NCBI GenBank assembly: GCA_036383955.1 | Contig: DASVNH010000224.1 | Span: 1,008-65,007 of the forward strand | Source: Planctomycetota bacterium | GTDB taxonomy: Bacteria; Planctomycetota; MHYJ01; JACPRB01 | DNA length: 64,000 nucleotides | Direction: 5' to 3' | In this document: positions 26,851-53,722 of the stretch, piece by piece | Position numbering within the stretch: the stretch's first letter is position 1 | Layout of the letters: every line of letters starts with the position of its first letter | The notes under the pieces: generated by a model | Told to the model about the DNA's origin: nothing | The model's database searches: none | The model's input: the letters and a program-made list of their open reading frames with translations, nothing else | Position numbers and translations under genes: made by a program

Positions 26851-27077
26851 CGGCGTTCGGAGGTCCCCTTGGAGCCGGTGGGTCCGTCGGGCTTCGACGA
26901 CGCGGCGCCCCGTCGCCGCCTCCTGGTCGAACCCCGACCGCGCCTCCGACATCCTCCCCGTATCTTCTCCTCCTCGACTTGCTTTTTCGCGCCAAAGCGA
27001 TGTCGATCCCCCCGGGGCGGGCCGCGCGCCATCGACGCCTCGCGACGGTTTGCGCATCGGATCCCGGTCCCTGCTGA

Positions 27078-27106
27078 TTGACAAGCCCAAGCCCCTGGGC
27101 TAAAGT
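27078..27106 (+). promoter_or_regulatory. sigma-70-type promoter TTGACA-17-TAAAGT (now driving only a tRNA fragment)
   Basis: TTGACA at 27078-27083 and TAAAGT at 27101-27106, with a 17-nt spacer, 24 nt upstream of the tRNA 5' end. Confidence 0.55.
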
Positions 27107-27130
27107 GCCCTACCCTCGTACCAGCAGTTT

Positions 27131-27168
27131 GGACAGGTAGCTCAGCTGGTAGAGCACTGCACTGAAAA
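27131..27168 (+). pseudogene. truncated tRNA-Phe (positions 1-38 only: acceptor 5' strand, D-arm, anticodon stem 5' strand and loop)
   Basis: GGACAGGTAGCTCAGCTGGTAGAGCACTGCACTGAAAA, then sequence unrelated to the tRNA. Confidence 0.85.
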
Positions 27169-27345: not shown

Positions 27346-28566
27346 CTACGTGGTGCCAAGAACCCTGGGGTTACGAGTCGGCTTGAGGTTCTTCCGACTC
27401 AATTTCTTTCCATCCAACTCCCATTCCGGAGGTTTCACGGCAACTTCCTCGATTTGAATCTCTGCCTTATCCATGTCCTTGAATAACTCGGTGAAGTTAT
27501 CAATTACGGATTTCCGCATCATGACTTCCCCAAACTGCAAGGTCGCTCTTTGCACCATTGCAGGGTCTTCAAACTTTGCGTAGGGATCGGTGGTTTCAGC
27601 CCATCGATAAATTGGGTACGAAGGCGGGCATTCTTGGGGGCCGCAAGGAGGCTGCCACCTGCCGGGGCTTGTGCTCCTAAGCTTACCCTCGCGCACTCCT
27701 GGCGAGAAAAGTCGATTGTACTTAGCCTCGTGGTAATACCTCCCTGCCATAGGTAGTCCGGAATCAACAAATCTGGGAGGACTAAGCCGGTAAGTCTTTG
27801 TATCCGGATAATCCATATCCGCCAACTCGCCCTTGTAGATTGGATCCAACTCCCTTGCAATCTTGAAGATGTCGCGAAAGAGCTGAACATTCTGCTGATG
27901 AAACGGCTCATCCCAGACCGTATGCTGCACGTCTCCACGAACTCTTTGAACCATGGTGAATGTCTGAGTCCACAAAGCAATACCGGCCCCAGTGTTAAAG
28001 GCTCCTGCGACAAGTCCATTCGAGAATCCCTGTGCTTGCCGAATGAAATCCTGCAATTCATCCATTTGGTTGATTACCCGAGGTAAGTCTCTTCTGAATG
28101 TCTCTTCGTTCACCATCAATGGGCGTAGGATATTGCTTTTGGTGCCGATGGAAATCATTGCCGACTTGACCCGATCGTAGCTCAACTGCCCTTTTATTCT
28201 CGCCTCAAGAAGGTCAATAGCCTTAAACAGCTCACCGATTTGAGTAAGAATTGCAGTTACTCGCTGTTCGACGGCCTCAAGAGCACCTAAGGCCTTACTA
28301 AGAGCGGTGGGGATAGCATCGTTAGGACGACCAACGAGGTTATATCCCATGACCACAATCTGAGCGATAGCAATGATCTCAGCAAAGAAGTTCACGGACG
28401 GCGGGCTATTACCGTCACTAAGCCGAGCAAGGCTTTGCTGCGCCTCGGACATTTCTGGAATTACCCGACCTTCTTGATGATGCTTGTGACTCACCTTGCC
28501 GCGGGCTTTAACGCTCACGTTATCTCCATAAAAAGATATTACGACCGTACCAACTATTATGAACAA
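27346..28566 (-). CDS. hypothetical protein (orphan, low G+C); start 28566 or 28452
   Basis: A 406-aa ORF at about 50% G+C with no motif I can assign. The alternative ATG at 28452 gives MSEAQQSLARL. Confidence 0.5.
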   Translation of the reverse strand: MFIIVGTVVISFYGDNVSVKARGKVSHKHHQEGRVIPEMSEAQQSLARLSDGNSPPSVNFFAEIIAIAQIVVMGYNLVGRPNDAIPTALSKALGALEAVEQRVTAILTQIGELFKAIDLLEARIKGQLSYDRVKSAMISIGTKSNILRPLMVNEETFRRDLPRVINQMDELQDFIRQAQGFSNGLVAGAFNTGAGIALWTQTFTMVQRVRGDVQHTVWDEPFHQQNVQLFRDIFKIARELDPIYKGELADMDYPDTKTYRLSPPRFVDSGLPMAGRYYHEAKYNRLFSPGVREGKLRSTSPGRWQPPCGPQECPPSYPIYRWAETTDPYAKFEDPAMVQRATLQFGEVMMRKSVIDNFTELFKDMDKAEIQIEEVAVKPPEWELDGKKLSRKNLKPTRNPRVLGTT

Positions 28567-29005
28567 TCAAGAGTTTCCACGTCTAAGTCAAGCAATTACA
28601 CTCTTCCGCTTCAGTACACCCGGTAAGGATTTCGACGAGACGGCCCCCGACGCGATGACGGAGAAAATCTCCACCTACTTCGGAAAAGGCAAGCCGACCC
28701 GCTGCCTTTACCAGTACGACTTCGGCGGCGGCTGGGAACTCGACCCCATCTTGGAGGACGTCGTATCTCGGCCCGACAAACTCGGCCGACAGCTCCTGGA
28801 AGGGGCCCGGGCTTTTCCCCCTGACGACTGAGGCGGCATCGGCGGCTACGAGGAGTGCATCGACGTCGCTCTGGGGCACCGCAAGGACCCGGAATGCCTT
28901 AAGTGGCTCGACGGCTGGGAGCTGTCGTTCAATCTTCGGCAAGTCGAGAGGCTCTATTATCAGGCTAAGCTCTTCCTACAAGCGCATTACGAAGAGTATC
29001 TTTGA
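28559..29005 (+). pseudogene. PRiA4_ORF3-like (plasmid pRiA4b ORF-3 family) gene remnant, N-terminally truncated with an in-frame TGA
   Basis: YQYDFGGGWELDP matches the family YxYDFGDxWxH block. PPDD-TGA-GGIGGYEE matches the CPPEDCGGxxGYEE block, with TGA (28829-28831) at the Cys position. The frame stays open to TGA 29003-29005. The family consensus is recalled from memory. Confidence 0.6.
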
Positions 29006-29259: not shown

Positions 29260-30372
29260 GTGACCATCGCCAGCTTGTTCGTTCACACTATGCTTCTGGC
29301 GTGCTCGCTCCAGGCGGTGGATCTGGAAGCCGCAGAGGCTTTTCGGCCGTTCTGGAAGCCACTCAAGTTAGAAGCGAAGGAGCTGTCGGCGCGGGATATC
29401 CTGGCAAAGATTCAGCAGGAGAGCGGGGAAACTATCGACTTGCCTGACAAAGGATGGGCTCCCAAATCCATTTCCTTGAATCTGCGGGAGGCTACATTCT
29501 GGCAGGCAGTGGACGAAGTCTGTCGCTTGGATGGCAACTTGCGCCACCCTTTGAGTTCCGAGTCCTCGGGCATGGTTGCCGCCCCTTGGCGAGCAAATCC
29601 AACCTTCTTTCTCGGGCCGTTTCGCTTCACGATAGAGGACGTGGCTCGCGTACGTGAATTCCGATATCCAGACCGCTCGGACTATACGGAAGTAACGCTT
29701 CTTGTTCAGTGGACTAGCAGCTTCACCCCCGCACTTGATCCGTGGCCCAACCCTGGCCGTATCGAAGTTGTCAGCGCGGTAGACGAAGGTGGACGTTCCT
29801 TGCTCCCACAGGTGGACGCTGGAGGCACCTTCCTCCGGTCGCCGGACGGGACGTCCCAGAGGTCTTCCCGGTGGATCCTCCGGCTCCAACCTGTCGGCAA
29901 AACCGTAAAGGCTATTGGCCGACTCGATCTCACATGGAAAACTGTGCGACCCGATTCGATCACCCCAATCAACTTCGATAACCCGATGGGCTCAGAAGGT
30001 ATGACGCGTCGAGTGGGACCTTTTACGCTAACCCTTGAGAGGTGCGCGCGGGACCCCAGAGGAGGCGCAGGACTTGAGACCACACTCGTTCTTCGAATTG
30101 ATAAGTCCGAAGTGACACCAGAGCTCGGCCGTGACTTGCTGGAGGTGCCACTTGACCGCCGCGTTCTGAACTGGGTCAAGGTGGACGGAGTGTCCCGCCA
30201 TAGGCCGTTCAGATCCGTCGTGGATCCTAAAGATCCAAACAAGGCCATTTTCAAAACCTACCTTTCCGAACAAGTACCGCGCACAATCAGTATTCACGTG
30301 GCTACAGGGATATCCTCCCTTTCGGTTCCCCTCCGATTTAACGGGATCCGCTTGCCCGAGGACGGCCGATGA
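29260..30372 (+). CDS. hypothetical secreted protein, paralog A
   Basis: 370 aa with an N-terminal signal-like segment. It shares blocks with the next gene: FWQAVDEVCRLDG vs VWRFLDQLCEAHGG, GPFRFTIEDV vs GPFRIWIDKL, VTLLVQWTSSF vs MVLAVAWQPNV. Confidence 0.65.
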   Translation: MTIASLFVHTMLLACSLQAVDLEAAEAFRPFWKPLKLEAKELSARDILAKIQQESGETIDLPDKGWAPKSISLNLREATFWQAVDEVCRLDGNLRHPLSSESSGMVAAPWRANPTFFLGPFRFTIEDVARVREFRYPDRSDYTEVTLLVQWTSSFTPALDPWPNPGRIEVVSAVDEGGRSLLPQVDAGGTFLRSPDGTSQRSSRWILRLQPVGKTVKAIGRLDLTWKTVRPDSITPINFDNPMGSEGMTRRVGPFTLTLERCARDPRGGAGLETTLVLRIDKSEVTPELGRDLLEVPLDRRVLNWVKVDGVSRHRPFRSVVDPKDPNKAIFKTYLSEQVPRTISIHVATGISSLSVPLRFNGIRLPEDGR

Positions 30373-31634: not shown

Positions 31635-31871
31635 ACTGCGCTGCGTGCCGACCTAACGCTTTGGATTATTAGGCCATCGCCCCTCCAGCCGCAGTGGTAT
31701 TAACATTCTGTCGCTCTCCGGGGGCGCCGCTGCCGCTACCTCCGGCCCTTATGCCCTGCGGGCACCAGCAGGCCCGGAGGCTCACCTCACCGCTCCCCTC
31801 ACAAGGCGTGGAAGCGACACTGAAATCAAGTGAGTTCCTGTCGCACCTTGCGGGTTTCAAGCTGCGCCCCT

Positions 31872-34800
31872 CTAAGGACTGGTATAGGTGCCGTTCGCTT
31901 CGTGACCACATACACCCCCATTTGAATCCTTGCCTCCAATTCCAACACTTACCTGGATCAGTGGCGGACCAAGGGGGGCCTGGGCTCGTGGAGCCCAAGT
32001 GGAGCCACGTTCTGTGGGAAGACTAGCCTTCAACGGTTGTTTCTGAGCTTGTTGGCGGACATTCTCCTCAGCCGATTTCATTGTATCATTATTCTTTAGC
32101 GGGTCATAATACCCAGTCACCACTGGGCTTGGGAACATCGTCCTCCATTCCGGGTCCTCGAATGTCTCCCTCATTATTGGGAGTTTCCCAATCTTTCCCA
32201 AACCGTCAATTGGTTCGCGTAACTGGCTAATGTCCTGCTTTCCAGGGCGTTTGGCTCCTGGCTTCCCATCCAACCACCGCTTATACTCGGCCTCCGAGTA
32301 TGCTGGATCGGCCTGGTCGGGAACCAGAGTTGTAATTTCGATCTTGAACGTTACGACAAGATCCATATATGCCTCACCGGTGATTTCGGTTGTGCAGCGA
32401 TACTTGATCTTAAACCGGACGCCGGCGCTGAATCCAACCTGAGGCCACTTCTCCGCTCCGTCCAGATGCCATCCAAACGTTACGGCAGGCGACCCCTGCG
32501 GAGGCATTACAATTTCAACCTCGCACAGGCCCTCAGGATCAAGACTGCCGGTAGGCCTTGCCCCGACATACTCATAGAGATTATAGCCATCATGATAACC
32601 AATCGGATCCCTCTGAAGCCAACGTCCGAGCGTCGGGTGGTACTCGCGATTTCGTACCTGATAAGTCTTGGTAGCCCCCTGCCTATACCCCCCCATGAAC
32701 AGCTCGTTACCCGTATTATCCTTAGTAGCAACTGCCCACGCCGAAGTCCAGCGAGAGAATTGGCCATAGGCGTCGTACAGGTAGCGTATGTAAGTTGTGC
32801 CGCTAGTTTCCACAAGGCTGGTTACATTGTAATTAGCATCCTGCGTGTAGTAAATCCTTCGGTCGGTACCGTCGACGCAGTCTCCATCGCCGTCTTTGTT
32901 TTCGTCTCGCAGTACGACAGCATCAATATAACGTAGATCCCAAATGTACTGACACTTTGGAACGGTAGCCACAGTCGTCGTTGACGATGTATTGAGCAGC
33001 TCCCGCTCCTCAACCACCTGCCACTCACTCGTGTAGTAGTAATCCACCCGATTCACGGGAGATCCGCCAGCACTGGTAACTTCCCTTAGCTTTACAATGC
33101 GGCGGTGGAGGCCGTCGTACTTGTACCACTCTGTAATTGATGTACCTAAAGGAGAGGTGTCATTCTGAACCATGCGATTCCAGGCATCATACACGTAAAG
33201 CCGCAAATCGGAGGATACCGCGGCGCCTGGGGGAGCGGCCGCGATTACGTTACCGTTTTGATCCAATTGGCAATCGGCTCCGCCTGATCCGGCAGTTAAG
33301 TTAATTACAGTTGTCTCATTTGCTTTTGTATGATCGCGCGTCTCATCACGGGTGGTTGTTCCGGCGGTAGTTTGCACCAGTTGCTTCCAGTTGCCTGACC
33401 CTTCTAGGGTCCACGTTTCCTGAAAGCCAGGGGTACCGCTTATATCCGTTCGCCCAGCGTTTAGATCTCCACGCTTGTCCGTTGTTAGGCGATCCAGACC
33501 GTCCATTACGAAGTACTGATCCTTACCTAGCCCGTTCGCGGTCAGGTTGTCTCGAAAGGTACGGTTGGACGTGCGATCATAGCCATACTGATACTGGTCC
33601 TTAATAGCCGCAGAATCGGTTTGCCACTTGTGGTCGATGATTCTGCCGAACCTGTCCCAGCCAGTGGGGCTCCCCGTCCCTGTTCCATAGTCCAGGTTGA
33701 GCCCTCCCGTTACTTGAGGATGGGCGACTTTAACGATTCTTCCTAAGCCAAGGTAGGTGTACTGGGCGAACTTAGTTGTACCGGAGGCGTCATGAGCAAG
33801 GTTGTCGGGGCGTGAAAGCCTATCTCCTACTGTCCCAGAGGAAGGGTAATTCATGTACACCACGCGTCCGTTCGGGTACGACATCGAGGTTAACCGGATG
33901 TACTTTGCCTCTCCGCTTACGGCCCCGTCTGAAAAACTCTTGGTGTAGCCGGGGGCGCCCGTCGCAGTTCCCTCGTGCCCCTCAGTACGCCCGGTTTCCT
34001 GTCTCCACCCATCGTAGCTGAATCGAATCTCATTGAGAAGCGTACCGCCTGAAGTAGCACTGTAACTTCCAACTGTCACTCTTCGGGAGAGATCATCGTA
34101 GCCATACTCAATGCGCCTAATTGCCCCGTCAATGCCGGAGCCAAGCGTGCTGGCTTGGTCGGTCGAGAAGCGGCCAACAGTGTCATACGTGTAGGTGTGC
34201 GTCGTCGTATCCTGCTGCTTCTTCGTCAGCTTACGGCTAGCGTACTCGTAGGTGTATTCAATACGGTCATACGTTGCATCTGTGCCATTAGCAAACTTCG
34301 CGCCGGCAGAGCCGCCCGCATTGAACGTGTCGTCACTGTCGGGATAGATTTCTCCAACCAAGATATCGTTGCGCCAGACCGCCGGAGAGGCAAGATTCGC
34401 GTCCGTACCGTACCCGTACGTCGTAATCTGATCCTCTACGGTGCCCCCCTTTGGATTCTTCACCTTGATCTGAGAAAGCCTACCCGCGCTATCGTAGACG
34501 TGTTCGGTCGTACGATCCGAATCATACTCGGCGTTTCCCACGCTGCCATCAACGTAGTTACCGACGCTCTTCGTTGCCCTGGCAAGCATGTCAAAGGTGA
34601 CTTCTGTAACCCGAGCCTTGTTGTCTAATCTGCGATATGGTCGGCCTGCTGAGTCAAACTGAGTCTTTGCTACAAGGATGTTGTCGCTACTGTTCGGTTC
34701 AGGAGGTGTACTTGGCCTGGTAAACGTGGTATCCCCATTGTTGCCGTAATTGGCCTGATAAGTTTGGCGCCCCGCAATATCGAACCATGCCGCATAAAAC

Positions 34801-37697
34801 GTCCTGCGTGAATCCCCCACCGCCCAGCTTACCGAGAGATCTCCGGTCTTGGAGCTCAAGTCAGTCCTCTCGTAGGTGGTTTCTTGGATAAGATTCCCCG
34901 CTCCGTCATAGTTTTTTACGACCTGCGCAATCACCGTGTCGCCTGCTACGTCATCTGCGTCCGGATAGGCTGATTCACCATCGTCGTATGAAACAAAAGT
35001 CGCACTCGTCCCCCCAGCCCCATCGTAGGCAACCTTATTGAATTCTCCGTTGGGTCCTTTCGTCTTGATCCGCGCACCTCGCGCATTCGCCCAATAGTGT
35101 GTCGTCAATCTGTTACCAACCGCGCCCGTACTTGGATGCACATGGTGCATGATCGTTTGGTAAACCCGCCCTTTTTCGTCGAACTTGGTTTCGCTCTTTC
35201 CGCGTAGCTCGGTTGAGTCTATAACGAAATTGACGTTTGTATCCGCGTAGGTTTCGCTGACGGTCGACTGATTCAGATTATCATAAGTCGTCCTCAGGGC
35301 CACCTTATCGGGACCGCGCATGTCGAGTTGGCGACCGCGAAAATCATACTGATAACTCGTGTCCAGGCTCGTCGCCGCCGCGGTGAAGAACTTACTCGTC
35401 GTCAGGTTTCCATTTCCGACCCCACCGGCATCGTAAATGTACTCGTTCGTCTTGATCGTATTCGTCCCCGAAAGATTGGAAGGCGACCACGCCCCGGAGG
35501 TAGGTGTGTCGTCGGTTCCGATCCATTCGCTAACTACACGACCGAGGCCGTCGTGTACCGTACGCAGGATAGTCAGGGTCCAATCGACATCCCGATCGGG
35601 GCGACCGTTCAGGTCATAACCACTGCTGCGTCGGTAGAAATGTGTTCCCAATGTACCCAAGCTTGTCGAGGTTGAGTACGTCAGGCCACTGAAGGAGTTG
35701 TAAGCGTCGACCTGAGTAACTCGACCGTTCGCGTCACGCGTTGAGCGTTCGAGCCTGTGAATGAGCGAGGATCCCGTCAACGTCTCTGTACCCGTCGGCT
35801 TGCCGCCCGAGGATGTAGGAGTCACGGACGTGGTAAAGTTGTCCGTGTAGCTCCCGGCCTTGTCCTTTCTGGTCACCCTAGTAGGGCCTGTCGTCGCTGT
35901 CCCCGTCCAGCCTGGATAGACTCTTGTCTCCCAATCCGCGTCCTTGTATACCGTGTAAGTATCGCGAAGGTCTGGATCTTGATCGCGCGTACTGCGGGAG
36001 AGGAGGTCGAACTCGTAATTCCAGACTAAGTGCAGCCCCCCACTCGAAGGTGTCACCCAGCCGGAAGGCTCGTCGGAAACACTGCTGGTTTGGACGTCTC
36101 GAATACGCTGGGTCAGAGCACCCGTACCACGATCGTAGCGGCTGACTTGGAGGAAGCCATCCGCATCCTTGAACCACGTGGGCCGGCTCCATTTATCGAA
36201 GTACTGGATGTCGGAGGTCGCGGAATTTGAGCCATTTTGGGCCGTGGTCACAATCGGGTAGGTGGTTGTTTTCGCCTCGATCTTGTTGGATTCGCTAGAG
36301 GACGGCGGAACGAACCAAGTATATGCGAACGACGTCGTCTGGCCGCCCGTTCCATCCGTGTTGCGGTACCTCGCCCGGTTCGCGATTGGGTATACGGTGT
36401 GTGAATAGGCAAATGCAACCGAGGATGCGTGAGCGAAATACTGGGTTTGCTCCTGCTTCACAAGAGATCCGCTCTTCCCATTCTTGATATTGCGTGTCTT
36501 AACGAAGCCAAGCACATCTCCAGGAGTGCCGGAAGTCGCCGTAGTCGAGCTTCCATACTCTGTCACCTGAATCAGGCCCGTGTTATTGAGATATGTGTAG
36601 GTACCGCCTACAAGGTTGGGCTGCGCTTCCATGGTGGCAAGCGACACCACAGTCGCATCCGCAACAGCGGCTGGACTGGCCTCCATCGTCACCCGCCCCT
36701 TTGAATCGCGCTCGTACCACGTGCGCCACTCAAGAGTGCCTGACTTGAACACTTTCATGACGACTTGCGCGCGAGAGTTCGTGTATACGATGTTCTGGTC
36801 CCCATTGGGAAGCGTTTCAACGACTTTCCGCGTCCAGTTGTTCACGCCGTTGGCGTGGGCACTGTCCGTGGCGGATGATAACGTAACCGTGCCTACGCCC
36901 TGCACCACCTCGGAGGTCACGCGCAGGTTTGTGTCGAACGTCAACTTCAGATTCGCGTAGGTCTGCACAGTCGTGTCCGAAGCTAAATCGACGTTTCCGT
37001 CCGTGCCCCCAACAAACGCTTTCAATCTCTCGTAGGATTCCCCCTCCACGATCAACTTCGGGGTCACTTGGCTTTGAACGTCAACGTTGTAGCGATAATA
37101 TGTCACCTCAATCGTGTTGTTGGAGGCATCCTTGACCCGAGCGCGTTGCAACGCTCCAATTGCCCCACTGGAATAGTACTCGTACGTCACGCTCCTTATC
37201 GTCTGTTGGGAGCTCGAGACGATCCGCGAAAGGGTTACCGCACTCACTTGCCAATTCGATCCGATCTGGGTGTACGCATAATCCAAACGAGTTTCGGTGG
37301 TCGTATCGATCACTCCCGCTGTCTGTTCGAACTGACGCCGCTGCGAAATCCGATAGGGGCCGGATCCGCCTGGCTGGGTGAAGCTGTGCAGCGTTGCCGT
37401 CCCCGTCAGGGCCGTGGTGAAATATGCGTTCGTCGTCGAATAGAGGCACCCCCTCAGCTCCGAGATCGAGTAGGTGAAGCTGTAGAACTCAAGGTTGTTC
37501 CCATCCTCGTCTTTGAGATTAATCTTCGTCCCGTCACCCGACGTGACCAACGTCTCTTTGTATGAGTAGTCCGGATCTGGATCATAGGCTCCACCGTTCT
37601 TCACCCACGAGCGGGCGTGGCGCGAGCCGATAACGAGAACGACCTTGGTTCCCTTGTCGACAAGTCGGGCGAAACCGTTGCGCCAGCCCGGCCCCAT
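31872..37697 (-). CDS. Rhs/YD-repeat polymorphic toxin (shell + RHS core + 217-aa unassigned C-terminal domain)
   Basis: 1941 aa with dozens of YD-type repeats (YxYDxxGR/N). The RHS-repeat-associated core ends in YHPTLGRWLQRDPIGYHDGYNLYEYVGARPTGSLDPEGL. The C-terminal domain lies at 31875-32525. The frame is open upstream to the TGA at 37923-37925. Confidence 0.9.
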   Translation of the reverse strand: MGPGWRNGFARLVDKGTKVVLVIGSRHARSWVKNGGAYDPDPDYSYKETLVTSGDGTKINLKDEDGNNLEFYSFTYSISELRGCLYSTTNAYFTTALTGTATLHSFTQPGGSGPYRISQRRQFEQTAGVIDTTTETRLDYAYTQIGSNWQVSAVTLSRIVSSSQQTIRSVTYEYYSSGAIGALQRARVKDASNNTIEVTYYRYNVDVQSQVTPKLIVEGESYERLKAFVGGTDGNVDLASDTTVQTYANLKLTFDTNLRVTSEVVQGVGTVTLSSATDSAHANGVNNWTRKVVETLPNGDQNIVYTNSRAQVVMKVFKSGTLEWRTWYERDSKGRVTMEASPAAVADATVVSLATMEAQPNLVGGTYTYLNNTGLIQVTEYGSSTTATSGTPGDVLGFVKTRNIKNGKSGSLVKQEQTQYFAHASSVAFAYSHTVYPIANRARYRNTDGTGGQTTSFAYTWFVPPSSSESNKIEAKTTTYPIVTTAQNGSNSATSDIQYFDKWSRPTWFKDADGFLQVSRYDRGTGALTQRIRDVQTSSVSDEPSGWVTPSSGGLHLVWNYEFDLLSRSTRDQDPDLRDTYTVYKDADWETRVYPGWTGTATTGPTRVTRKDKAGSYTDNFTTSVTPTSSGGKPTGTETLTGSSLIHRLERSTRDANGRVTQVDAYNSFSGLTYSTSTSLGTLGTHFYRRSSGYDLNGRPDRDVDWTLTILRTVHDGLGRVVSEWIGTDDTPTSGAWSPSNLSGTNTIKTNEYIYDAGGVGNGNLTTSKFFTAAATSLDTSYQYDFRGRQLDMRGPDKVALRTTYDNLNQSTVSETYADTNVNFVIDSTELRGKSETKFDEKGRVYQTIMHHVHPSTGAVGNRLTTHYWANARGARIKTKGPNGEFNKVAYDGAGGTSATFVSYDDGESAYPDADDVAGDTVIAQVVKNYDGAGNLIQETTYERTDLSSKTGDLSVSWAVGDSRRTFYAAWFDIAGRQTYQANYGNNGDTTFTRPSTPPEPNSSDNILVAKTQFDSAGRPYRRLDNKARVTEVTFDMLARATKSVGNYVDGSVGNAEYDSDRTTEHVYDSAGRLSQIKVKNPKGGTVEDQITTYGYGTDANLASPAVWRNDILVGEIYPDSDDTFNAGGSAGAKFANGTDATYDRIEYTYEYASRKLTKKQQDTTTHTYTYDTVGRFSTDQASTLGSGIDGAIRRIEYGYDDLSRRVTVGSYSATSGGTLLNEIRFSYDGWRQETGRTEGHEGTATGAPGYTKSFSDGAVSGEAKYIRLTSMSYPNGRVVYMNYPSSGTVGDRLSRPDNLAHDASGTTKFAQYTYLGLGRIVKVAHPQVTGGLNLDYGTGTGSPTGWDRFGRIIDHKWQTDSAAIKDQYQYGYDRTSNRTFRDNLTANGLGKDQYFVMDGLDRLTTDKRGDLNAGRTDISGTPGFQETWTLEGSGNWKQLVQTTAGTTTRDETRDHTKANETTVINLTAGSGGADCQLDQNGNVIAAAPPGAAVSSDLRLYVYDAWNRMVQNDTSPLGTSITEWYKYDGLHRRIVKLREVTSAGGSPVNRVDYYYTSEWQVVEERELLNTSSTTTVATVPKCQYIWDLRYIDAVVLRDENKDGDGDCVDGTDRRIYYTQDANYNVTSLVETSGTTYIRYLYDAYGQFSRWTSAWAVATKDNTGNELFMGGYRQGATKTYQVRNREYHPTLGRWLQRDPIGYHDGYNLYEYVGARPTGSLDPEGLCEVEIVMPPQGSPAVTFGWHLDGAEKWPQVGFSAGVRFKIKYRCTTEITGEAYMDLVVTFKIEITTLVPDQADPAYSEAEYKRWLDGKPGAKRPGKQDISQLREPIDGLGKIGKLPIMRETFEDPEWRTMFPSPVVTGYYDPLKNNDTMKSAEENVRQQAQKQPLKASLPTERGSTWAPRAQAPLGPPLIQVSVGIGGKDSNGGVCGHEANGTYTSP

Positions 37698-37922
37698 CGT
37701 CCCGTCGGAGTAAGCGGGGTCCGTCGCCCAATGCCGAGTCTGACTGATTCCTTCGAAACCCTGCGCAGCGAGGTCCGCACTGGAGAGGATCTTTTCGCCG
37801 GTGTAGAAGTTGGTCGGAAAAGAGCTTAGCGCGCAGAAGTTATCGCCGTCCGCGGTCGCGCTGCCGCCGCCGGTGATCGAGGCGCTTACCCCACCGGACT
37901 CCGTCCGGTCGCAGCAGAGTTT

Positions 37923-38075
37923 TCAGCCGGCCGTTGACGAGGCGTAGTCGGTGAAGGTCGCCAGCGTAGTACGTACCACCTCTTCCCACTTGGGAGTGCT
38001 TAGCAGGGAAAGGAAGCCGGCCGCGGCGAAGACCGCCGCCGGTAGGGCCCACGCCAGGATGTTCTTCGCCTTCAT
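37923..38075 (-). CDS. signal-anchor fragment in frame with the Rhs ORF (separated only by TGA)
   Basis: ATG 38075 follows GAGGG and gives MKAKNILAWALPAAVFAAAGFLSLLSTPKWEE.... The TGA at 37925-37923 is followed by 75 sense codons in the same frame, leading into the Rhs ATG at 37697. Confidence 0.5.
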   Translation of the reverse strand: MKAKNILAWALPAAVFAAAGFLSLLSTPKWEEVVRTTLATFTDYASSTAG

Positions 38076-38124: not shown

Positions 38125-39489
38125 CTATCGGGACAGCTGCTTTTCAATCTCGATAATCCGCCGTTCCAGGTTCGCGGTTACCTGCGGGTCCAGCTTTCCA
38201 GACGGCGCGCTTCCGAGCTGACTCTTGAGCCAGTCGAGTTCACCGCGCAGGGGCGCGTCGCGGCGATCCAGCTCCGCCTTTGCCTGTAGCTGCTCGAGTT
38301 CTCGCTCCCGCTGAAGCACCGCCGGCTCCACCGCCGCGAAAGCCCGGGCCGCTTCGGCCTCACCCACGATGGGTTTCCACGTCTCCATTGCCTTCCGCGA
38401 TAACTTGGGGTCAAAAGGCGTGAGTTCCGCCAGCAGTTTCCTGAATGCGGCCTCTCGGACGGCCAGGTCGGACGTCGCCCGAATCACTCTCCCCCAACAG
38501 GACGCGCGCCAGGACGCCTCGGGAAAAGTATTTCCGGGGGTCTGAGCCTGCACCTTCTCCCAGAAGGCGGCCTCGTACGACTTCCCGGCAACCAGCGCCG
38601 AAAGAGTGCCTTCCTCCATCACAATCCCGCAGCCCGTCTCCTTCGCGACTCCCCAAGCGACGGCTTCCCAGAATTTCCCAGCTATTGAGAGGTCCTTTGT
38701 ATGCTCCATCCCCCGCTCGGTGAGATTCCAGTCCTTGGCTTCACGTCCCGAACGGGCTACGCGTACGGCCACCTTTTCCGCTATGTAGGCGATCTCCGCG
38801 TTCACGGGCGCTTCGGCCCACGCCGCGATCAGCTTCGGGAAATCAGGCGAGGCCTTTTCCGCCAGGCCAAGGACGTGTTCGATCCTTGGGGCCGGAGCCT
38901 TGGCGTCTTCAGTCGTCCCTTCGACCCAGTAAGCGCGCCGAATCATCCGAAGCGCCCGATTGAAGTCGTCCGCCTCGATCGAGACTGAGACGGCTGCCTC
39001 AAGGCTGCTTCCCCGATAGACGGAAATCGGCGTCTTTACGAGCCGATCCAATCCCCGTTCGATCTGCGGCTTCCAATACTCGTTCGCGTTCGCGGAACGA
39101 ATCAGAGCCGCGAGTTGCTCCTTTGAACTCCAGCGCGCGAAGCGCGCGAGAAGCTCCTCTGCGATAGGCTCGATACCCGGCTGTGCTCCGGGCACGCGTT
39201 TGATTCGTTCCCAGCCGGTAAACGCCGCATTCTGCACTGGTGCCCACTCGTCCGCCGTGAGACGGTCATGCAGTGTCACCAACAGCCGGGCACCCAGATC
39301 CACGTCCGACGGTGTAGGCTGGTACTTCAACAGCTGCGCCGCGCTTTCCACGAGCACCACCTTTTCCGCGGTGTAGACCGGAAGATGGAGCGTCGTTTCA
39401 TGACCTCGGGGAGCTGATCCTGGACCGAACAGAAACCAAGCCACGACGAGTAGCACGACAGAAGCCAGAAGAAGAGCGAACCATTTCAT
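38125..39489 (-). CDS. hypothetical membrane-anchored protein with C-terminal coiled coil
   Basis: 454 aa with N-terminal TM MKWFALLLASVVLLVVAWFLF and a C-terminal RERELEQLQAKAELDRRD...IIEIEKQL. It ends 49 nt upstream of the Rhs signal-anchor ATG. Confidence 0.6.
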   Translation of the reverse strand: MKWFALLLASVVLLVVAWFLFGPGSAPRGHETTLHLPVYTAEKVVLVESAAQLLKYQPTPSDVDLGARLLVTLHDRLTADEWAPVQNAAFTGWERIKRVPGAQPGIEPIAEELLARFARWSSKEQLAALIRSANANEYWKPQIERGLDRLVKTPISVYRGSSLEAAVSVSIEADDFNRALRMIRRAYWVEGTTEDAKAPAPRIEHVLGLAEKASPDFPKLIAAWAEAPVNAEIAYIAEKVAVRVARSGREAKDWNLTERGMEHTKDLSIAGKFWEAVAWGVAKETGCGIVMEEGTLSALVAGKSYEAAFWEKVQAQTPGNTFPEASWRASCWGRVIRATSDLAVREAAFRKLLAELTPFDPKLSRKAMETWKPIVGEAEAARAFAAVEPAVLQRERELEQLQAKAELDRRDAPLRGELDWLKSQLGSAPSGKLDPQVTANLERRIIEIEKQLSR

Positions 39490-39956
39490 GAGAGGATCAG
39501 TTCCCGGATAGAGATGAGAGGATAGCTTTGGATGGGAATCGAGGTGACGACCGGGTTCCGCGACTCCATATTCCCTCCCCTGGGAGTCCGAGACTTTCCT
39601 ATCTCGAACTCCTCCCGTCGTCCGCCACCCCGGTCAGAAGGGGGACAACGGCCCATGCCCGCGGCGTTCCAACTGCTCTGCACCGCTGACTAGCGTGGTT
39701 CTACACTGCCCTATCCAGGTCCGTCAACAAAATTGCGATCCGTTCACGCATTCTTTTCAGGTTTCTCCTGAGGCCGAAAGATGGTCGGCGGATGATCAGG
39801 AGCTCAATCAGTGCCCGGACAACTTCCCATGGGACGTGGACCTGGGAACCGCGGAGACCGTCACCGCCTCGGCCAACAACCCGCGCCGTCACGCGTAGAG
39901 CGGGGCGCCGGCTGCTTCATTGAGCGGTCCAAACATGCACGCCTGAGTTGGCGTCT

Positions 39957-41642
39957 TCAGCGCTTGACGCCGAAGAGCCGCTCTCCGCATCGTTCGAGCA
40001 GCTCACGTCCGACCGCGTCCTCGATCAGGGGATCCGAACGAGGATTGACCTTCGAGCAGTAGACGTAGCGCGCCCCTGTCTCTTCGATAGACTTCCTCAA
40101 GTCCTCGATCGTCCGACCGCGGAAGTAGAAGACGGGGCGGGTGTAGTCCGGTCTGTAGATGAGATAGGACTCTCCGCGCGAATGGACAGCCTCGACGATG
40201 TGGAAAAGCACAGGCTCGACGCCAGGCGGCTGGGATTCGAGGATGGAGCCGACCGAACGTTCCCGCCAGCTCATTTTCGCCAACCGGATAGCGTTTTCAA
40301 GACGGTGATCGACCGGGAAAAACGTCGCGGCGAACTGGAACGCCGCCCCCGCCGTAACGAGCCCCAGGACGGGCCTCATCCGCTCCGCCGCCCAGACGGC
40401 CGCGACCGCGAGGACGGACGGGAAGAACAGGACAAAGCGCAGGCACCAGTCATCATGATTCACGAGGAAAAGGACCGACACCAGAGAAACGGACATCCCC
40501 AGCAACACCCGGCCCGCCCTAGGGGTTTCGCGCACCCAGCCCCACAGCGCCAGCGAACCGCACGCGAACGCCACCGCTCCCCAGCCCGAGATGTGGCTCA
40601 ATAGCGCCCCATAGCCCACTTGATCGTCATAGACGCGCACATTGAACAACGCCCGGATGTTCCTCCAACCCGAGCTCAGGCTCGGCCCGAACTGGATCTT
40701 CAGGGTTCCCTCGCCACCGATCAGTCCACGACTCCCCACGGGATGCATCGGATTCCCGAACCAGAGCGCATTGCGCGCGTACCAGAACAGCCCCGGCACC
40801 AGAGCCACCACGCCGACCGGCAGGCCCGTCCCCGCGCTCTTCGCGACTAGCACAAGGAAGCCCGGCAGCGCGTAGCCGTACGTCGGCTTGATCCCGACCC
40901 CCAAAAGCGCGATCGCTGCGACCCACGGCCACGGTGCCTTTGCCAGCAGCAGCGCGAACGTTGATAGGACCAGCGCCGCGATCGGCACGTCGTTCAGGCA
41001 GGACGTCGCGCTCACCTGCAGCCCCGGCGTCAGCGCGTACAGCAGCGCGGCCCAAGCCGAGGCTTTCTCCGACATCCCAAGCTCCCGCGCCAACGCGAAG
41101 CAGGCCGCCGACGCCAGCAGCAGGAACTCCACGCCGGCCAACTCGATTAGGACGTCGTGACGCAAGAACACCACCCACCAGGCTTCAATGAGTTCGAAGC
41201 CCGCGGGAAACGTCGCGTGAGTATCGACGCCCATCTCGCGCGTAAAGCCGCCCGCTCGGATCCATTCCGGGATCTTCGTCAGATGGTAGGACAGCGCGTC
41301 GTGGTTGTGCGGCGCGAAGAACCAGACCTGCAGGAGCAGCCGCAGCAGGACAATCGCCGCCGCGCAGGTCCAAATATAGCCCCAAAACGGAACCCTCGGT
41401 TTCGACACCCGTGGTCGCAGGATCGCCAGGGCCACGACCCCCGCCGCACTCAGCCAGAAACCGTTAAAAGTCCCTGTGGTGCCCGCCGCGATCACCACGA
41501 GCGAAATAAGAAGAAAGCGGGCGACGAAGAAGAGAAGGACGTCGAGATGCCCTTGCCTCGTCCCCCAGCGGCGAACCGCCTCGCGCGCGCACGCGAGAAC
41601 TGCCGCGTTGGCTACAAGCATACCCGCGAGGCCTAGGATCAT
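39957..41642 (-). CDS. polytopic GT-C-fold glycosyltransferase (family 39/83-like, PMT/ArnT-type)
   Basis: 561 aa with more than 10 predicted TM helices, an early loop motif NHDALSYH resembling the GT-C D/E-x-x-x-Y loop, and a C-terminal soluble domain. It is adjacent to a GT2 polyprenyl-phosphate glycosyltransferase-like gene. Confidence 0.55.
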   Translation of the reverse strand: MILGLAGMLVANAAVLACAREAVRRWGTRQGHLDVLLFFVARFLLISLVVIAAGTTGTFNGFWLSAAGVVALAILRPRVSKPRVPFWGYIWTCAAAIVLLRLLLQVWFFAPHNHDALSYHLTKIPEWIRAGGFTREMGVDTHATFPAGFELIEAWWVVFLRHDVLIELAGVEFLLLASAACFALARELGMSEKASAWAALLYALTPGLQVSATSCLNDVPIAALVLSTFALLLAKAPWPWVAAIALLGVGIKPTYGYALPGFLVLVAKSAGTGLPVGVVALVPGLFWYARNALWFGNPMHPVGSRGLIGGEGTLKIQFGPSLSSGWRNIRALFNVRVYDDQVGYGALLSHISGWGAVAFACGSLALWGWVRETPRAGRVLLGMSVSLVSVLFLVNHDDWCLRFVLFFPSVLAVAAVWAAERMRPVLGLVTAGAAFQFAATFFPVDHRLENAIRLAKMSWRERSVGSILESQPPGVEPVLFHIVEAVHSRGESYLIYRPDYTRPVFYFRGRTIEDLRKSIEETGARYVYCSKVNPRSDPLIEDAVGRELLERCGERLFGVKR

Positions 41643-41680
41643 GGACAGAGTGAAGCAGCCGCGCTATAAGTCGTCAACGG

Positions 41681-41923
41681 ATGTCGAAAACGCTCTGGCC
41701 CGAATTCGTGGTGGCCCTCGGCCTCGTGCTCGTCCGAATCCTCTCCGTCGCGCCCGGCGGCCTCTGGCGCGACTGGCTTTTCTTCCTCGGCCTCTTCGGT
41801 CTCGCCCACGCCCTGGGCGCGCGATCCACGCCCGTCGCGACGACCGCCATGGCCTACCTACTGGCGATCCACGTCGTGGGCCAGCTCCCACACATACTCA
41901 CCGTCTGGGGCATGAGGTTTTAG
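41681..41923 (+). CDS. small membrane protein (80 aa)
   Basis: Two to three hydrophobic helices and strongly G+C-rich third positions. It is on the opposite strand to both neighbours. Confidence 0.4.
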   Translation: MSKTLWPEFVVALGLVLVRILSVAPGGLWRDWLFFLGLFGLAHALGARSTPVATTAMAYLLAIHVVGQLPHILTVWGMRF

Positions 41924-42606
41924 CGGAAGATCGCGCGGTCGAGCATCACCGCGACGGCTCGCACCGCGTCCTTCCAGCCGATCTTCTTGCCTTCCGCGTA
42001 GCCGCGGCGTTCATACGAGATCGGCCGCTCCGCGAATCGCAGGCCCCGCCGGGCCAGCAGCGCCGTCACCTCGGGTTCGAAGCTGAAGCCGTCCGAGCGA
42101 AGCGGAAGCACCCGGGCGATCCGCGCGGGGATCAACTTGTAGCAGGTTACCATGTCCGTGAGATGCCGCGCCGTCAAAAGGTTCGAGAGCCACGTCAGGC
42201 TCCGATTGCCCAGCGTATGCCACCACTCCGCGCGCGAACGCGTCAGATATCGAGACCCATAGACGACATCCGCCCGACCGGCCCGCAGAACCTCGAGCAA
42301 TGCCTCGATATCCGCGGGATCGTATTCGAGGTCCGCGTCCTGCACCACGATGAACGTCCCGGTCGCCCGCTTGAATCCTTCGCGGATCGCCGCGCCTTTC
42401 CCCTGGTTTCGAGATTGCCGCACGACTTTGATGATCGGTGTCCGGCCAGCCAGCAAGTCGAGTTTCTCACGCGTGTGGTCAGTTGAACCGTCATCCACGA
42501 CAACCACCTCGCGGAGCGAGGGCATCGCGAGCACCCGGTTCAGAATCGCTTCGATCGTCGAAGCCTCATTGAAGACCGGCATGATCACGGAGAGGTCCGG
42601 CTGCAT
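41920..42606 (-). CDS. GT2 glycosyltransferase (dolichyl/polyprenyl-phosphate mannosyl/glucosyl-transferase-like)
   Basis: 228 aa with SVIMPVFNE, VVVDDGSTDHT and VQDADLEYDP (DxD-type), typical of the DPM1/ArnC-like GT2 family. Confidence 0.85.
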   Translation of the reverse strand: MQPDLSVIMPVFNEASTIEAILNRVLAMPSLREVVVVDDGSTDHTREKLDLLAGRTPIIKVVRQSRNQGKGAAIREGFKRATGTFIVVQDADLEYDPADIEALLEVLRAGRADVVYGSRYLTRSRAEWWHTLGNRSLTWLSNLLTARHLTDMVTCYKLIPARIARVLPLRSDGFSFEPEVTALLARRGLRFAERPISYERRGYAEGKKIGWKDAVRAVAVMLDRAIFR

Positions 42607-42677: not shown

Positions 42678-43196
42678 ATGCGACGCGCCGCTGCCCTGCT
42701 CGCGCTGCTCGCCGCCGGATGCGCGGGCCAGAGCGCCCAGAACTGGCTCGAAGAGGGGAACCGCTTCTTCGACACCGGAGATCCCCAGGGCGCCGTACGG
42801 GCCTACTCCTCCGCGATCGACGTAGACCCTGGGTTCTCGCAAGCATGGAATAACCGGGGGCTCGCGAAAGCCCAGCTCGGAGACCTCGTGGGCGCGCACG
42901 CGGATTACGCCGAGGCTATCCGGCTCGGCCCGTCCGCCGCCGAGGCTCACTACAATCGCGGCGTCGTCTACCTCCAGACCCAAGACGCGTATCGGGCCAT
43001 CGCGGATTTCTCCGACGCCCTCCGCCTGCAGCCCGAGTATCCGCGCGCGCTGGCCGGGCGAGGCTTGGCGCGGGCGAAGGTCGGGGACAAAACTGGTGCG
43101 GCCGACGACTTCAAGAAGGCCCTCGAGCTGTCTTCCCCGGACTGGCCCGAGCGGACCCGCGTCGAAGCCGAGTTGGCTAGGCTCAGCGGGAAATGA
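42678..43196 (+). CDS. TPR-repeat lipoprotein
   Basis: MRRAAALLALLAAGC lipobox, then four TPR units (AWNNRGLA, AHYNRGVVY, ALAGRGLA ...). Confidence 0.8.
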   Translation: MRRAAALLALLAAGCAGQSAQNWLEEGNRFFDTGDPQGAVRAYSSAIDVDPGFSQAWNNRGLAKAQLGDLVGAHADYAEAIRLGPSAAEAHYNRGVVYLQTQDAYRAIADFSDALRLQPEYPRALAGRGLARAKVGDKTGAADDFKKALELSSPDWPERTRVEAELARLSGK

Positions 43197-43659
43197 CGAT
43201 GGACTCCGCCGGCTCGGCGAGCGTCAGCCGCAGGGCTTTCGCGGCGCCCCGGATTTCGCGCGTCCAAGCCTGACCCGTCCACGCTTCCAGGATCACCGGC
43301 TCGTCAAGCAGGGGCATGATCCGCCCGCCCTCCCGCCGCGAGAGCCCGCGGTCGGAAGCGATCCAGCGGATGTCGGAGCCCGCCCGCGCGCCCGTGGCGA
43401 ACGCGTCCGACGTGGTGGCCAGGGCGAGGACCGACGTCCCCGCAGGCGGCCGTTCCGCCGGCACGATCAGCCGCGTCCGGCCCCGCCAGTCTTGCGCGAT
43501 CAGTTCCGCAGCGCGCGACCGCCGCTCTTCCCTCCGCGCGTGCTCCCGGCTATCCTCGGCGGAGCGCGTCAGCCCCAGGGTCGCCGCCGACACCCCGAGC
43601 GTCAGGATCGCCGTGATTGCCACGGCCACCATGACCTCGATCAGCGTAAAGCCTTTCAT
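43183..43659 (-). CDS. T2SS minor pseudopilin (GspJ-like)
   Basis: MKGFTLIEVMVAVAITAIL prepilin-type N-terminus. The ATG at 43659 overlaps the upstream stop (ATGA). It is the last gene of the operon. Confidence 0.6.
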   Translation of the reverse strand: MKGFTLIEVMVAVAITAILTLGVSAATLGLTRSAEDSREHARREERRSRAAELIAQDWRGRTRLIVPAERPPAGTSVLALATTSDAFATGARAGSDIRWIASDRGLSRREGGRIMPLLDEPVILEAWTGQAWTREIRGAAKALRLTLAEPAESIVISR

Positions 43660-44012
43660 CGCGGCCCCGGCGGCCCGTGAAGCAGCTCCGAGCGCTCCAG
43701 AACCTTCGCTCCGCCCGGCCCGTATACCGCCAGAGTCACGCGCTTCAGCCGACTCAGGACGCCGGGCTCCGGCGACGTCCTCAGTTCCCAACGATGTCCG
43801 TCGAAGCCCGCCAGCGCGCCCTCGCGCTGAGCTTCGAGGCCGGACGTCCATTCGGCCAGCCTCGACTCCGCCGCGCGCTCGAGGCGAGCGTCGACCTCCG
43901 CCCCCGCGCTGCGCTTGAGGCTGCCCGCGACGGCCGCCGTCACGAGGACCAGCGAGCCCGCCGCGATGGCGAGCGCCACTAGGATCTCGAGGAGGGTGAA
44001 GCCTTTATTCAT
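43656..44012 (-). CDS. T2SS minor pseudopilin (GspI-like)
   Basis: MNKGFTLLEILVALAIAAG N-terminus, 118 aa. Confidence 0.65.
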   Translation of the reverse strand: MNKGFTLLEILVALAIAAGSLVLVTAAVAGSLKRSAGAEVDARLERAAESRLAEWTSGLEAQREGALAGFDGHRWELRTSPEPGVLSRLKRVTLAVYGPGGAKVLERSELLHGPPGPR

Positions 44013-44418
44013 ACTTCACTCCGCTTAGGAGGGCATCGACAACTACCGCGACGCGGTCGCCGCTCTTGTGGCGGAGCCCGATGGCGCGCGGGTCCGCTAC
44101 GCCCCGGCGGTCGAAGACGAGTTCTCCCGCTTCCTCGAACGTCTGCCCAAAGCCGAGGGTCCCGCCGGACACGCGTTCGTCGGCGGAGGAGGTCACGCTC
44201 CACGCGCGCTCCTTCCAGGCGACGCGGTAGGTCGTCTCGTCGAAGCGCGCGCGCTCGCGCCAGACGCCGAGGGCGCCGCCGAACGCGCGGGCGGAGGCGT
44301 TCAGGGACTGCCGGGGGGTCCAGCCGGACACGCGGAGGACGAGAAAGCCCGAGAGCACGACCACCACCGCCAGGACGACGGTGAGCTCGATCAGGGTGAA
44401 GCCCGCGCGGCGCTTCAT
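44005..44418 (-). CDS. T2SS minor pseudopilin (GspH-like)
   Basis: MKRRAGFTLIELTVVLAVVVVL N-terminus, 137 aa. ATGA overlap with gspG. Confidence 0.65.
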   Translation of the reverse strand: MKRRAGFTLIELTVVLAVVVVLSGFLVLRVSGWTPRQSLNASARAFGGALGVWRERARFDETTYRVAWKERAWSVTSSADERVSGGTLGFGQTFEEAGELVFDRRGVADPRAIGLRHKSGDRVAVVVDALLSGVKYE

Positions 44419-44813
44419 TCATTCGAGAGGTCGGCGTCGAGGCCGGCTCCCCCTTCTTTGCCGTCGGCGCCCAGCGACGTGAGCGTGAACTTGCGGCCCT
44501 GCGCCGCGTAGCGGAAGTCGTTGCCCCACGGATCCTTGGGCACGGCCTTGCCCTTCAGGTAGCCGCCTTCCTGCCAGTTCGCGACGCCGCTGGGCTTCTC
44601 GATCAGCTCCCGCAGCTCCTTCGGCATGCGGCCGGCGTGGGTGTAGAAGGAGACGATCGCCGACTCGATCTGCGCGATCTGCGACTTCGCCGCCGCGACC
44701 TTCGCTTCGTCGGTCTTGCCCGTGTAGCGCACGACGACGAGCGTCGCCAGGATCCCGATGATCGCAACCACGACGATCATCTCGAGGAGCGTAAAGCCGG
44801 CGACGCGTCTCAT
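44415..44813 (-). CDS. gspG: T2SS major pseudopilin GspG
   Basis: MRRVAGFTLLEMIVVVAIIGILA ... PKDPWGN.F.Y ... LGADG.EGG, 132 aa from ATG 44813. Confidence 0.9.
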   Translation of the reverse strand: MRRVAGFTLLEMIVVVAIIGILATLVVVRYTGKTDEAKVAAAKSQIAQIESAIVSFYTHAGRMPKELRELIEKPSGVANWQEGGYLKGKAVPKDPWGNDFRYAAQGRKFTLTSLGADGKEGGAGLDADLSNE

Positions 44814-44821
44814 GTCGTTCC

Positions 44822-49664: not shown

Positions 49665-49692
49665 GACCCTTCCTCCCTGTTCGATCGAACGG

Positions 49693-53675: not shown

Positions 53676-53722
53676 TGAGCCGAATGGAAGCTGCGAGCGA
53701 CCTGTTACGATCTCGGCTCCGC

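Follow-up and report, generated by a model that had tools for sequence, protein, structure and literature searches.

What kind of domain forms the last 217 residues of a large Rhs protein from a soil planctomycete, and why is it followed by no immunity gene? The question is raised by a stretch of 64,000 nucleotides (hereafter the window) of contig DASVNH010000224.1, which is assigned to a Planctomycetota bacterium and has its source in a soil metagenome (source run X1). Here a minus-strand open reading frame (ORF), 37697..31872, encodes an Rhs protein of 1941 amino acids as called. A sequence-only reading of this DNA had described the C-terminal domain past the core end DPEGL as unassigned, had found no immunity gene downstream of it, and implied that this combination was exceptional. 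The analysis reported here suggests that this domain is probably an exchangeable C-terminal effector cassette (the tip) of a Sec-exported planctomycetal Rhs (YD-repeat) protein that is not associated with a type VI secretion system (T6SS). The called gene is laid out as follows:

31872-31874, minus strand: Rhs stop codon
31875..32525, minus strand: C-terminal tip, amino acids 1725-1941, 217 residues (translation CEVEIVMPP...GTYTSP)
32526..32777, minus strand: Rhs-associated core TIGR03696, ending RDPIGYHDGYNLYEYVGARPTGSLDPEGL, with a predicted aspartyl autoproteolysis site immediately before the tip
32526..37697, minus strand: Rhs/YD-repeat body, called from the first canonical start, amino acids 1-1724

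The border between body and tip is sharply defined. The TIGR03696 model (Rhs_assc_core, NCBIfam) matches amino acids 1641-1724 with 58.6 bits against a cut-off of 32.5, and the end of the match coincides exactly with ...YEYVGARPTGSLDPEGL, the DPEGL core end. The border itself reads ...NLYEYVGARPTGSLDPEGL and is followed by 217 residues to the C-terminus. The core end carries the PxxxxDPxGL autoproteolysis motif (...GRWLQRDPIGYHDGYNLYEYVGARPTGSLDPEGL followed by C, with cleavage predicted from the sequence to fall between the two), and among 13 relatives the R, D, D and G positions, which include the aspartate and glycine of RD and DPxG, do not vary. Only a faint match to the Pfam RHS_repeat model (E 0.04) was obtained in the protein. 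In the tip, the open frame of 217 codons is far beyond chance at the given composition, and the codon log-likelihood is +0.15 in this frame versus -0.48 and -0.34 off-frame, comparable to that of the other genes of the low-G+C island in which the locus lies. With the minus-strand ORF in place, the TIGR03696 match ending at the core and the tip coding in frame, an unassigned domain of 217 residues past DPEGL is confirmed.

The relatives sampled comprised 53 strong homologues of the full-length protein and 131 related loci. The nearest homologues, which show 42-55% identity, are planctomycetal proteins named RHS repeat-associated, and homologues cover 89-90% of the query, that is, all but the tip. 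All those with names belong to Planctomycetota (Gemmataceae, Zavarzinella, Humisphaera, Isosphaera and Phycisphaerae). The N-terminal architecture is a predicted signal peptide followed by DUF6531. Close relatives have the whole body in common and each carries a different tip of about 200 amino acids: clustering of the 182 distinct tips, whose median length is 206 amino acids, gave 155 clusters, of which 138 are singletons. None of the nine tips of the nearest relatives reached a Pfam cut-off, two giving sub-threshold hints (Prok-JAB and DUF922), and the tip of one further relative, which also has no close same-strand gene, showed a weak match to Aspzincin M35. As judged from these sequences, an unassigned tip such as this one is the norm in the planctomycetal signal-peptide Rhs family.

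Relatives of the tip itself were sought widely. It has no match in Pfam with E up to 1 (Pfam includes models built from the polymorphic toxin catalogue of PMC3482391), in PADLOC or in plasmids, and a search of the whole Rhs protein against NCBIfam returned the core and nothing in the tip. It shows no similarity to the tips of the 53 homologous proteins and 131 related loci, and no match among 181 tips from related Rhs genes. With these searches, the PDB sequences and the large protein searches taken together, the earlier statement that the domain matches no toxin family holds. The tip would therefore be a new sequence-orphan cassette of the established Rhs C-terminal type.

Several apparent similarities were rejected. 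The sole hits among PDB sequences, designer pentatricopeptide repeat proteins, contained zero significant stretches and reflected short motifs multiplied by repeats. The three hits of an exhaustive phmmer search of 1.84 billion representatives were repetitive surface proteins in which a motif of about 15 residues, QGSPVT..GW.LDGA, matched 6-11 times, so that their scores are repeat-inflated. When the core end plus tip was used as the query, P0063 and P0088 gave coverage past the core through alignment drift, and the similarity to the tip is not real. Finally, the β-strand motifs FKIKYRC and TGEAYM, seemingly shared with the tips of P0006, P0010 and P0012, were unsupported by phmmer or jackhmmer.

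The distribution of the tip in other soils indicates that it behaves as a cassette. The 5.2-kb Rhs body was found in no public run except X1. The tip is present as whole contigs of 151-254 nucleotides, with 95-97% identity, in four other soil datasets of different studies (X2-X5), of which X2 and X4 are DNA datasets and X3 and X5 are metatranscriptomic; all of these fragments fall within 31877-32484. Because X2-X5 carry the tip without this Rhs body or its neighbours, the tip circulates on other backbones as a mobile cassette, independent of the convergent genes that lie next to it in the window. The metatranscriptome matches are weak evidence for transcription of the tip, since carry-over of DNA is possible. 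A contig with the same gene order that had seemed independent (L132) was set aside, being 100% identical to the window and from the source run.

Compared with the window tip, the soil variants show 11 non-synonymous and 4 synonymous codon changes and no indels or stops, a pattern that fits either a fast-evolving toxin or relaxed selection. The variant lineage in X2-X5 has five substitutions within 19 nucleotides (32099-32117; tip residues 137-143), giving T137S, Y139H and D141E plus one silent change, which form a local hypervariable patch within VVTGYYDPL.

A possible source of such cassettes can be seen in L001, the closest relative, where two short copies of the last 35 Rhs-core residues lie downstream of the main Rhs gene (13340-13444 and 14868-14972; the same as in L085), adjoining integrase, primase and toxin-antitoxin genes. 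They are likely to be orphan cassettes of the type from which new tips are recruited by recombination.

With three quarters of the sampled family tips being singletons, the tip would be one more orphan effector domain in a very large, almost unexplored pool. This planctomycetal pool may prove a source of new enzymatic or pore-forming activities, and the present tip is a reasonable candidate for an expression screen because it is present in several soils, metatranscriptomes included.

The second part of the question concerns the immunity gene. The region past the Rhs stop codon contains the following features:

31635..31871: spacer of 237 nucleotides between convergent stop codons
30369..31634, plus strand: p421, 421 amino acids, with a signal peptide and one HEAT-like motif; the next gene with a coding signature past the Rhs stop
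29260..30372, plus strand: p370, 370 amino acids, with a signal peptide; in an operon with p421 via a 4-nucleotide overlap

No small same-strand immunity gene lies directly 3' of the Rhs gene; the spacer is followed by the convergent genes. The spacer contains an ORF on the Rhs strand with a TTG start (63 codons, 31860..31669), which has no coding signature (log-likelihood -0.04, and second codon positions richer in G+C than first) and no match in the related loci. It also contains an 11-nucleotide inverted repeat (31739-31749 / 31770-31780); no T-run terminator was found in the spacer, which folds no better than shuffled sequence (z -0.9). In addition, tblastn with the relatives' downstream ORFs detected no remnant immunity gene in the window. 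Thus the sequence-only reading was correct that the 237 nucleotides are non-coding, that the neighbours converge from the other strand (the nearest ending at 31634), and that no immunity gene follows on the same strand.

How unusual is this? Gene-caller tables for five relatives list a small same-strand gene 20-110 nucleotides past the stop in two (125 and 136 amino acids), gaps of 640-780 nucleotides in two others, and a convergent neighbour in the fifth. An ORF scan found a same-strand ORF of at least 90 amino acids, starting between -30 and +120 nucleotides, in 63 of 80 distinct relatives, a figure that is an upper bound on real genes since random positions give such an ORF 48% of the time. 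Roughly one in five related loci resemble the window in having no close same-strand ORF. Together with the 138 singletons among 182 tips and the lack of Pfam-level matches in all nine nearest tips, this removes the implied exceptionality of the locus. The missing immunity gene lies within the normal variation of the family and points to no new principle.

A hydrophobic or lipoprotein-like leader is present on 38 of the 63 downstream ORFs. Because these ORFs mostly carry signal or lipoprotein leaders, the data suggest that many tips in the family may act in the cell envelope; that family tips, this one included, do so rather than acting in the cytoplasm is a guess made on the same grounds.

It had also been raised that the convergent genes might form a new toxin/immunity arrangement. 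If so, p421 and p370 would be the immunity proteins of an envelope-acting toxin, encoded tail-to-tail with it. The two are paralogues (26% identity, E 2e-9), match no family or structure, have signal peptides like 60% of the relatives' downstream ORFs, and share with the Rhs gene a foreign third-position G+C content. The start of p421, comprising signal peptide and HEAT-like motif, resembles large exported HEAT-type proteins that follow some related Rhs genes, and HEAT repeats are an immunity type recorded in planctomycetes (PMC3482391); however, the similarity is confined to that one short N-terminal motif. Four further runs (X6, X9, X10 and X11) contain pieces of p370 and p421 with 95-100% identity, the p370 pieces of X9, X10 and X11 being 98-100% identical, so that pieces of both the tip and these genes are seen in other soils without the Rhs body. 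No run, however, holds pieces of both. In X2 and in X5 two fragments of the tip were seen but no piece of the 2.4-kb p370/p421 region, for which linkage would predict about seven, and joint travel of the tip and these genes is weakened accordingly. Moreover, p370 and p421 are absent from all 131 related loci, and they are large, duplicated and oriented opposite to the family norm. Since the tip occurs elsewhere without them, the convergent genes are unlikely to be obligate immunity partners, and the tail-to-tail arrangement as a whole is considered highly improbable.

A different explanation for the empty slot is that the effector is not aimed at bacteria. Soil eukaryotes (amoebae, nematodes or fungi) might be its targets, or it might have a non-toxic extracellular role, and in either case self-immunity would be needless, as for TcC tips. 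The absence of a same-strand immunity gene fits this proposal, as do the soil origin of the organism, the several relatives that also have no immunity gene (one of them with the Aspzincin M35-like peptidase tip) and the several metallopeptidase toxin families for which no immunity protein is listed (Zhang et al. 2012, PMC3482391). However, the tight same-strand ORF in 63 of 80 relatives is as expected of inter-bacterial toxins, the locus has neither a partner resembling TcA or TcB nor a eukaryote-like domain, and the argument is built on absence of evidence. This explanation is regarded as unlikely.

The proposed Sec-dependent export depends on the N-terminus, for which the called gene model appears to be incomplete. 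The region upstream of the called start reads as follows:

37698..37922, minus strand: 75 sense codons that continue the frame 5' of the called ATG; they encode a CC motif and the conserved FPTNFYTGEK segment, and ATG, GTG and TTG are all absent from them
37893..37909, minus strand: hairpin resembling a selenocysteine insertion sequence (SECIS), ACCGGAC-GGA-GUCCGGU, loop 20 nucleotides past the TGA
37923..37925, minus strand: in-frame TGA, candidate selenocysteine codon (G-U-K-L-C-C)
37926..38075, minus strand: ATG and 50 codons, probably the true 5' end of the gene; the N-terminus encoded here is a signal peptide or membrane anchor (MKAKNILAWALPAAVFAAAGFLSLL...)

A conserved segment surrounds the called ATG (37697), and the annotated start is probably wrong, the true N-terminus being upstream across the TGA. 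The N-terminus upstream of the TGA is conserved in relatives. It is in frame but split from the Rhs body by the TGA, and would be part of the protein only if the TGA is decoded. Three relatives with about 45-55% protein identity (L001, L002 and L004) show the same layout of signal peptide, G-TGA-x-x-C-C and a conserved PVNYFTGEN segment, and their TGA/N-terminus regions are located as follows:

L001: 1281-1487
L002: 7683-7886
L004: 1714-1914

Two of the four TGA loci have no canonical start codon from the TGA to this segment. A cysteine is aligned with the TGA in P0006 (...TVG-C-GICCC) and P0016 (...SVG-C-ELC), and CxxC-type motifs are found in more distant homologues (L005-L008, L055, L086 and P0011-14). 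In the Cys-form relatives P0006, P0009, P0011-14 and P0016 the signal-like N-terminus is contiguous with the body.

A perfect hairpin is present in all four loci, with stems of 6-7 bp, loops GGA, CGGGU, CGGGA and CGUGA starting 20-26 nucleotides past the TGA, and free energies of -8.3 to -9.9 kcal/mol; the stem sequences differ among the loci. The bacterial SECIS model (PMC13188914) specifies a hairpin 16-37 nucleotides past the UGA, with a loop of 3-5 nucleotides that has a G in its first two bases, and a free energy no higher than -7.5 kcal/mol. The four TGA sites all conform to this model, compared with 4.2% of in-frame control codons of the same genes (298 of 7080) and one of seven Cys-homologue sites. 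It is therefore rather likely that the UGA at 37925-37923 is decoded as selenocysteine within a conserved G-U-x-x-C-C motif about 20 residues past the signal peptide, which would make the product a Sec-exported selenoprotein Rhs. The chief rival reading is that a small upstream ORF is conserved and that translation re-initiates non-canonically after it. None of selA, selB, selD and tRNA-Sec lies within the 64-kb window; full sets of the selenocysteine machinery have been reported for the planctomycetes Gemmata obscuriglobus and Isosphaera pallida (PMC4807772). No mention of an Rhs selenoprotein was found in reviews or the database paper.

If correct, selenocysteine would for the first time be known in an Rhs/YD-repeat toxin carrier, and the protein would represent a new family of bacterial selenoproteins, with at least four planctomycetal loci plus Cys-form homologues. 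The present gene calls of the clade would then be N-terminally truncated, with the secretion signal hidden, and the gene models could be corrected. The selenocysteine would also offer a testable handle on the Cys-rich N-terminal motif, be it for redox chemistry, metal binding or tethering, and would matter more than the orphan tip.

Provided that the upstream N-terminus belongs to the Rhs protein, the delivery class would be of the Sec type and not T6SS. No T6SS domain, whether PAAR, VgrG, Hcp or another, was detected when about 55 window ORFs were scanned with Pfam, in agreement with the sequence-only reading, and neither PAAR nor a VgrG/EagR-type adaptor is present in the Rhs protein according to Pfam and NCBIfam.

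A number of observations weigh against the cassette and its proposed export. Sec-dependent export would require the TGA at 37925-37923 to be read through. Two unitigs of the source run are separated by a break (32683-32694) close to the joint of tip and body. The last 60 or so residues of the tip look low-complexity, and no toxic activity, fold or catalytic motif can be assigned to it from the sequence searches; a single-sequence AlphaFold2 model of the core end plus tip was unusable (mean predicted local distance difference test score, pLDDT, of 39). The search of a word-indexed set of 5.8 billion proteins, in which the tip had no match, missed even the window's own protein and so is not exhaustive for this region. 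The representative library was clustered at 50% identity, which makes the tips of non-representative Rhs proteins invisible. Finally, the 11:4 ratio of changes seen in other soils comes close to neutrality, given 439 non-synonymous and 132 synonymous sites, which leaves constraint (purifying selection) on the tip unproven.

Some of these points would equally be expected of a decaying locus, in which the tip is an inactive or drifting remnant, the immunity gene has already been lost and orphan status is functionally meaningless. The near-neutral ratio and the low-complexity C-terminal 60 residues agree with this, as do a truncated PRiA4_ORF3 gene and a truncated tRNA-Phe copy in the island (see below), and if the TGA at 37925 is an ordinary stop then the gene is without its signal peptide. 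However, the frame is intact over 6.2 kb apart from the conserved TGA, and the tip is open, with no indels, in the window and in all variant fragments. Fragments of the tip are also present in two metatranscriptome libraries, and the TGA and its hairpin are conserved in four diverged relatives, unlike a null mutation. Decay is accordingly judged improbable, and an exchangeable effector cassette of a Sec-exported Rhs protein is preferred.

How such a cassette might work can be outlined from what is known of Rhs and Tc proteins. By analogy with their structural biology, the YD shell would enclose the tip, and the aspartyl protease of the core would cut between Leu1724 and Cys1725. The freed 217-residue domain would then be the payload delivered to the target cell. 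The context of the gene suggests that the Rhs protein would be exported through Sec, and that of the family that the cassette was joined to the body by recombination in the core-coding region, the usual route of tip swapping. A cognate immunity gene may not have been carried along, may be unlinked, or may have been lost on rearrangement of the low-G+C island. The producer could tolerate its absence because the tip would stay sealed in the shell until export.

The architecture can be compared with several known systems. WapA of Bacillus subtilis is a Sec-dependent Rhs/YD-repeat contact-dependent inhibition toxin whose immunity protein is WapI. Like the window protein, it combines a long YD-repeat body and an Rhs core with a variable C-terminal toxin, that of WapA being about 150-250 amino acids and strain-variable, and its N-terminus is a Sec signal in place of a T6SS adaptor, as would hold for the window protein if the TGA is decoded. 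However, the tips of WapA act as tRNases, a small wapI gene comes after them on the same strand, and WapA is cell-wall-anchored in a Gram-positive bacterium, whereas the window protein is planctomycetal, has no adjacent immunity gene and carries a candidate selenocysteine in its N-terminus. The T6SS Rhs effectors (PAAR-Rhs with RhsI) resemble it in that the TIGR03696 core has a DPxGL end, a polymorphic tip is encapsulated and released by autoproteolysis, and cassettes are exchanged by recombination (features generally known for these effectors and described in part by bioRxiv 10.64898/2026.07.13.738213). In contrast, the window has no PAAR, VgrG, Hcp or T6SS gene and no rhsI-like gene after the Rhs gene, and the predicted N-terminus of the protein is a signal peptide followed by DUF6531.

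The TcB-TcC cocoon is similar in that a YD-repeat shell surrounds a hypervariable C-terminal effector (the hypervariable region of Photorhabdus TccC) that is cut by an aspartyl protease. Tc toxins need no immunity gene since their targets are eukaryotic. Unlike them, the window Rhs protein and its neighbours include no TcA partner, TcB N-terminal propeller or SpvB domain, and the relatives of the window protein mostly have downstream immunity-like ORFs. The predicted layout, in which RHS repeats come between a signal peptide and a variable toxin, is that of the Sec/'T2SS' class of polymorphic toxins (Zhang, de Souza, Anantharaman, Iyer and Aravind 2012, PMC3482391), a survey that names planctomycetes among the lineages with many such toxin and immunity families. 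The window differs from this class in that its tip is outside the Pfam models from that catalogue and its immunity slot is empty. With bacterial selenoproteins (PMC13188914) the window gene shares an in-frame UGA aligned with cysteine, a U-x-x-C-type motif and a SECIS-like hairpin just downstream; the host protein, however, is a 2,000-residue exported Rhs toxin carrier and not a redox enzyme.

The Rhs locus lies within an island of low G+C, in which third-position G+C is 0.53-0.70 compared with at least 0.9 in the flanking housekeeping genes. Its left edge and the genes upstream of Rhs are:

27068..27168, plus strand: left island edge, where the promoter region and 5' half of tRNA-Phe are duplicated as far as a cut within the anticodon loop; direct repeat with 53718-53820
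38125..39489, minus strand: p454, conserved upstream partner of the Rhs clade, with homologues directly upstream of Rhs in L001, L002, L004 and L007
39957..41642, minus strand: p561, PMT/GT-C-like membrane protein of the conserved cassette, with sub-threshold matches to PMT and AZOBR_p60025
43183-51128, minus strand: type II secretion system (T2SS) cluster, about 6 kb upstream of the Rhs cassette and on the same strand as Rhs
43183-44418, minus strand: pseudopilins
44415-45494, minus strand: GspG-like
44822-46024, minus strand: GspF
46021-47589, minus strand: GspE ATPase
47592-49664, minus strand: GspD secretin
50208-51128, minus strand: weak GspK-like

The intact tRNA-Phe is at 53783-53858, and the sequence upstream of it is the same as in the left copy (53718-53858 overall). 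The direct repeat of about 100 nucleotides comprises a promoter region that is 91% identical and the first 38 nucleotides of tRNA-Phe, which are 100% identical, and the left copy is cut exactly where the G+C content drops (about 27.1 kb). The 26.6 kb between the two copies contain the Rhs island and the T2SS cluster. It is the 5' rather than the 3' half of the tRNA gene that is duplicated, which is unusual for tRNA-targeted integration; no integrase was found, and an Rfam scan of 26.5-44 kb found no known RNA family. The adjacency of the T2SS cluster to Rhs may be coincidental, because its third-position G+C matches the core genome. Core-genome codon bias is also seen in a 1703-amino-acid ORF at 58798-63909 (minus strand; third-position G+C 0.97), which has no Pfam match at E <=0.01.

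The genes immediately upstream of Rhs form a cassette that is conserved in the clade, at 38125-42606 (minus strand) in the window, 4340-7667 in L002, 3557-5620 in L003 and 5195-8637 in L086. Its p454 product (about 450 amino acids) has no known domain, and p561 shares 52% identity with its positional counterpart in L002 and 41% with that in L086. The window cassette also includes a GT2 glycosyltransferase, and that of L003 includes Pyr4-TMTC-type genes. Periplasmic glycosylation of the Thr/Ser-rich Rhs protein is hinted at by these genes, but as pure speculation.

Near the left edge of the island lies a truncated PRiA4_ORF3-like gene (28559-28831, plus strand; 90 amino acids, model positions 65-131 of 173). 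It adjoins a 406-amino-acid gene (27346-28566, minus strand) with a third-position G+C of 0.53 and no homologue in any related locus, and the two look like mobile-DNA remnants within the island.

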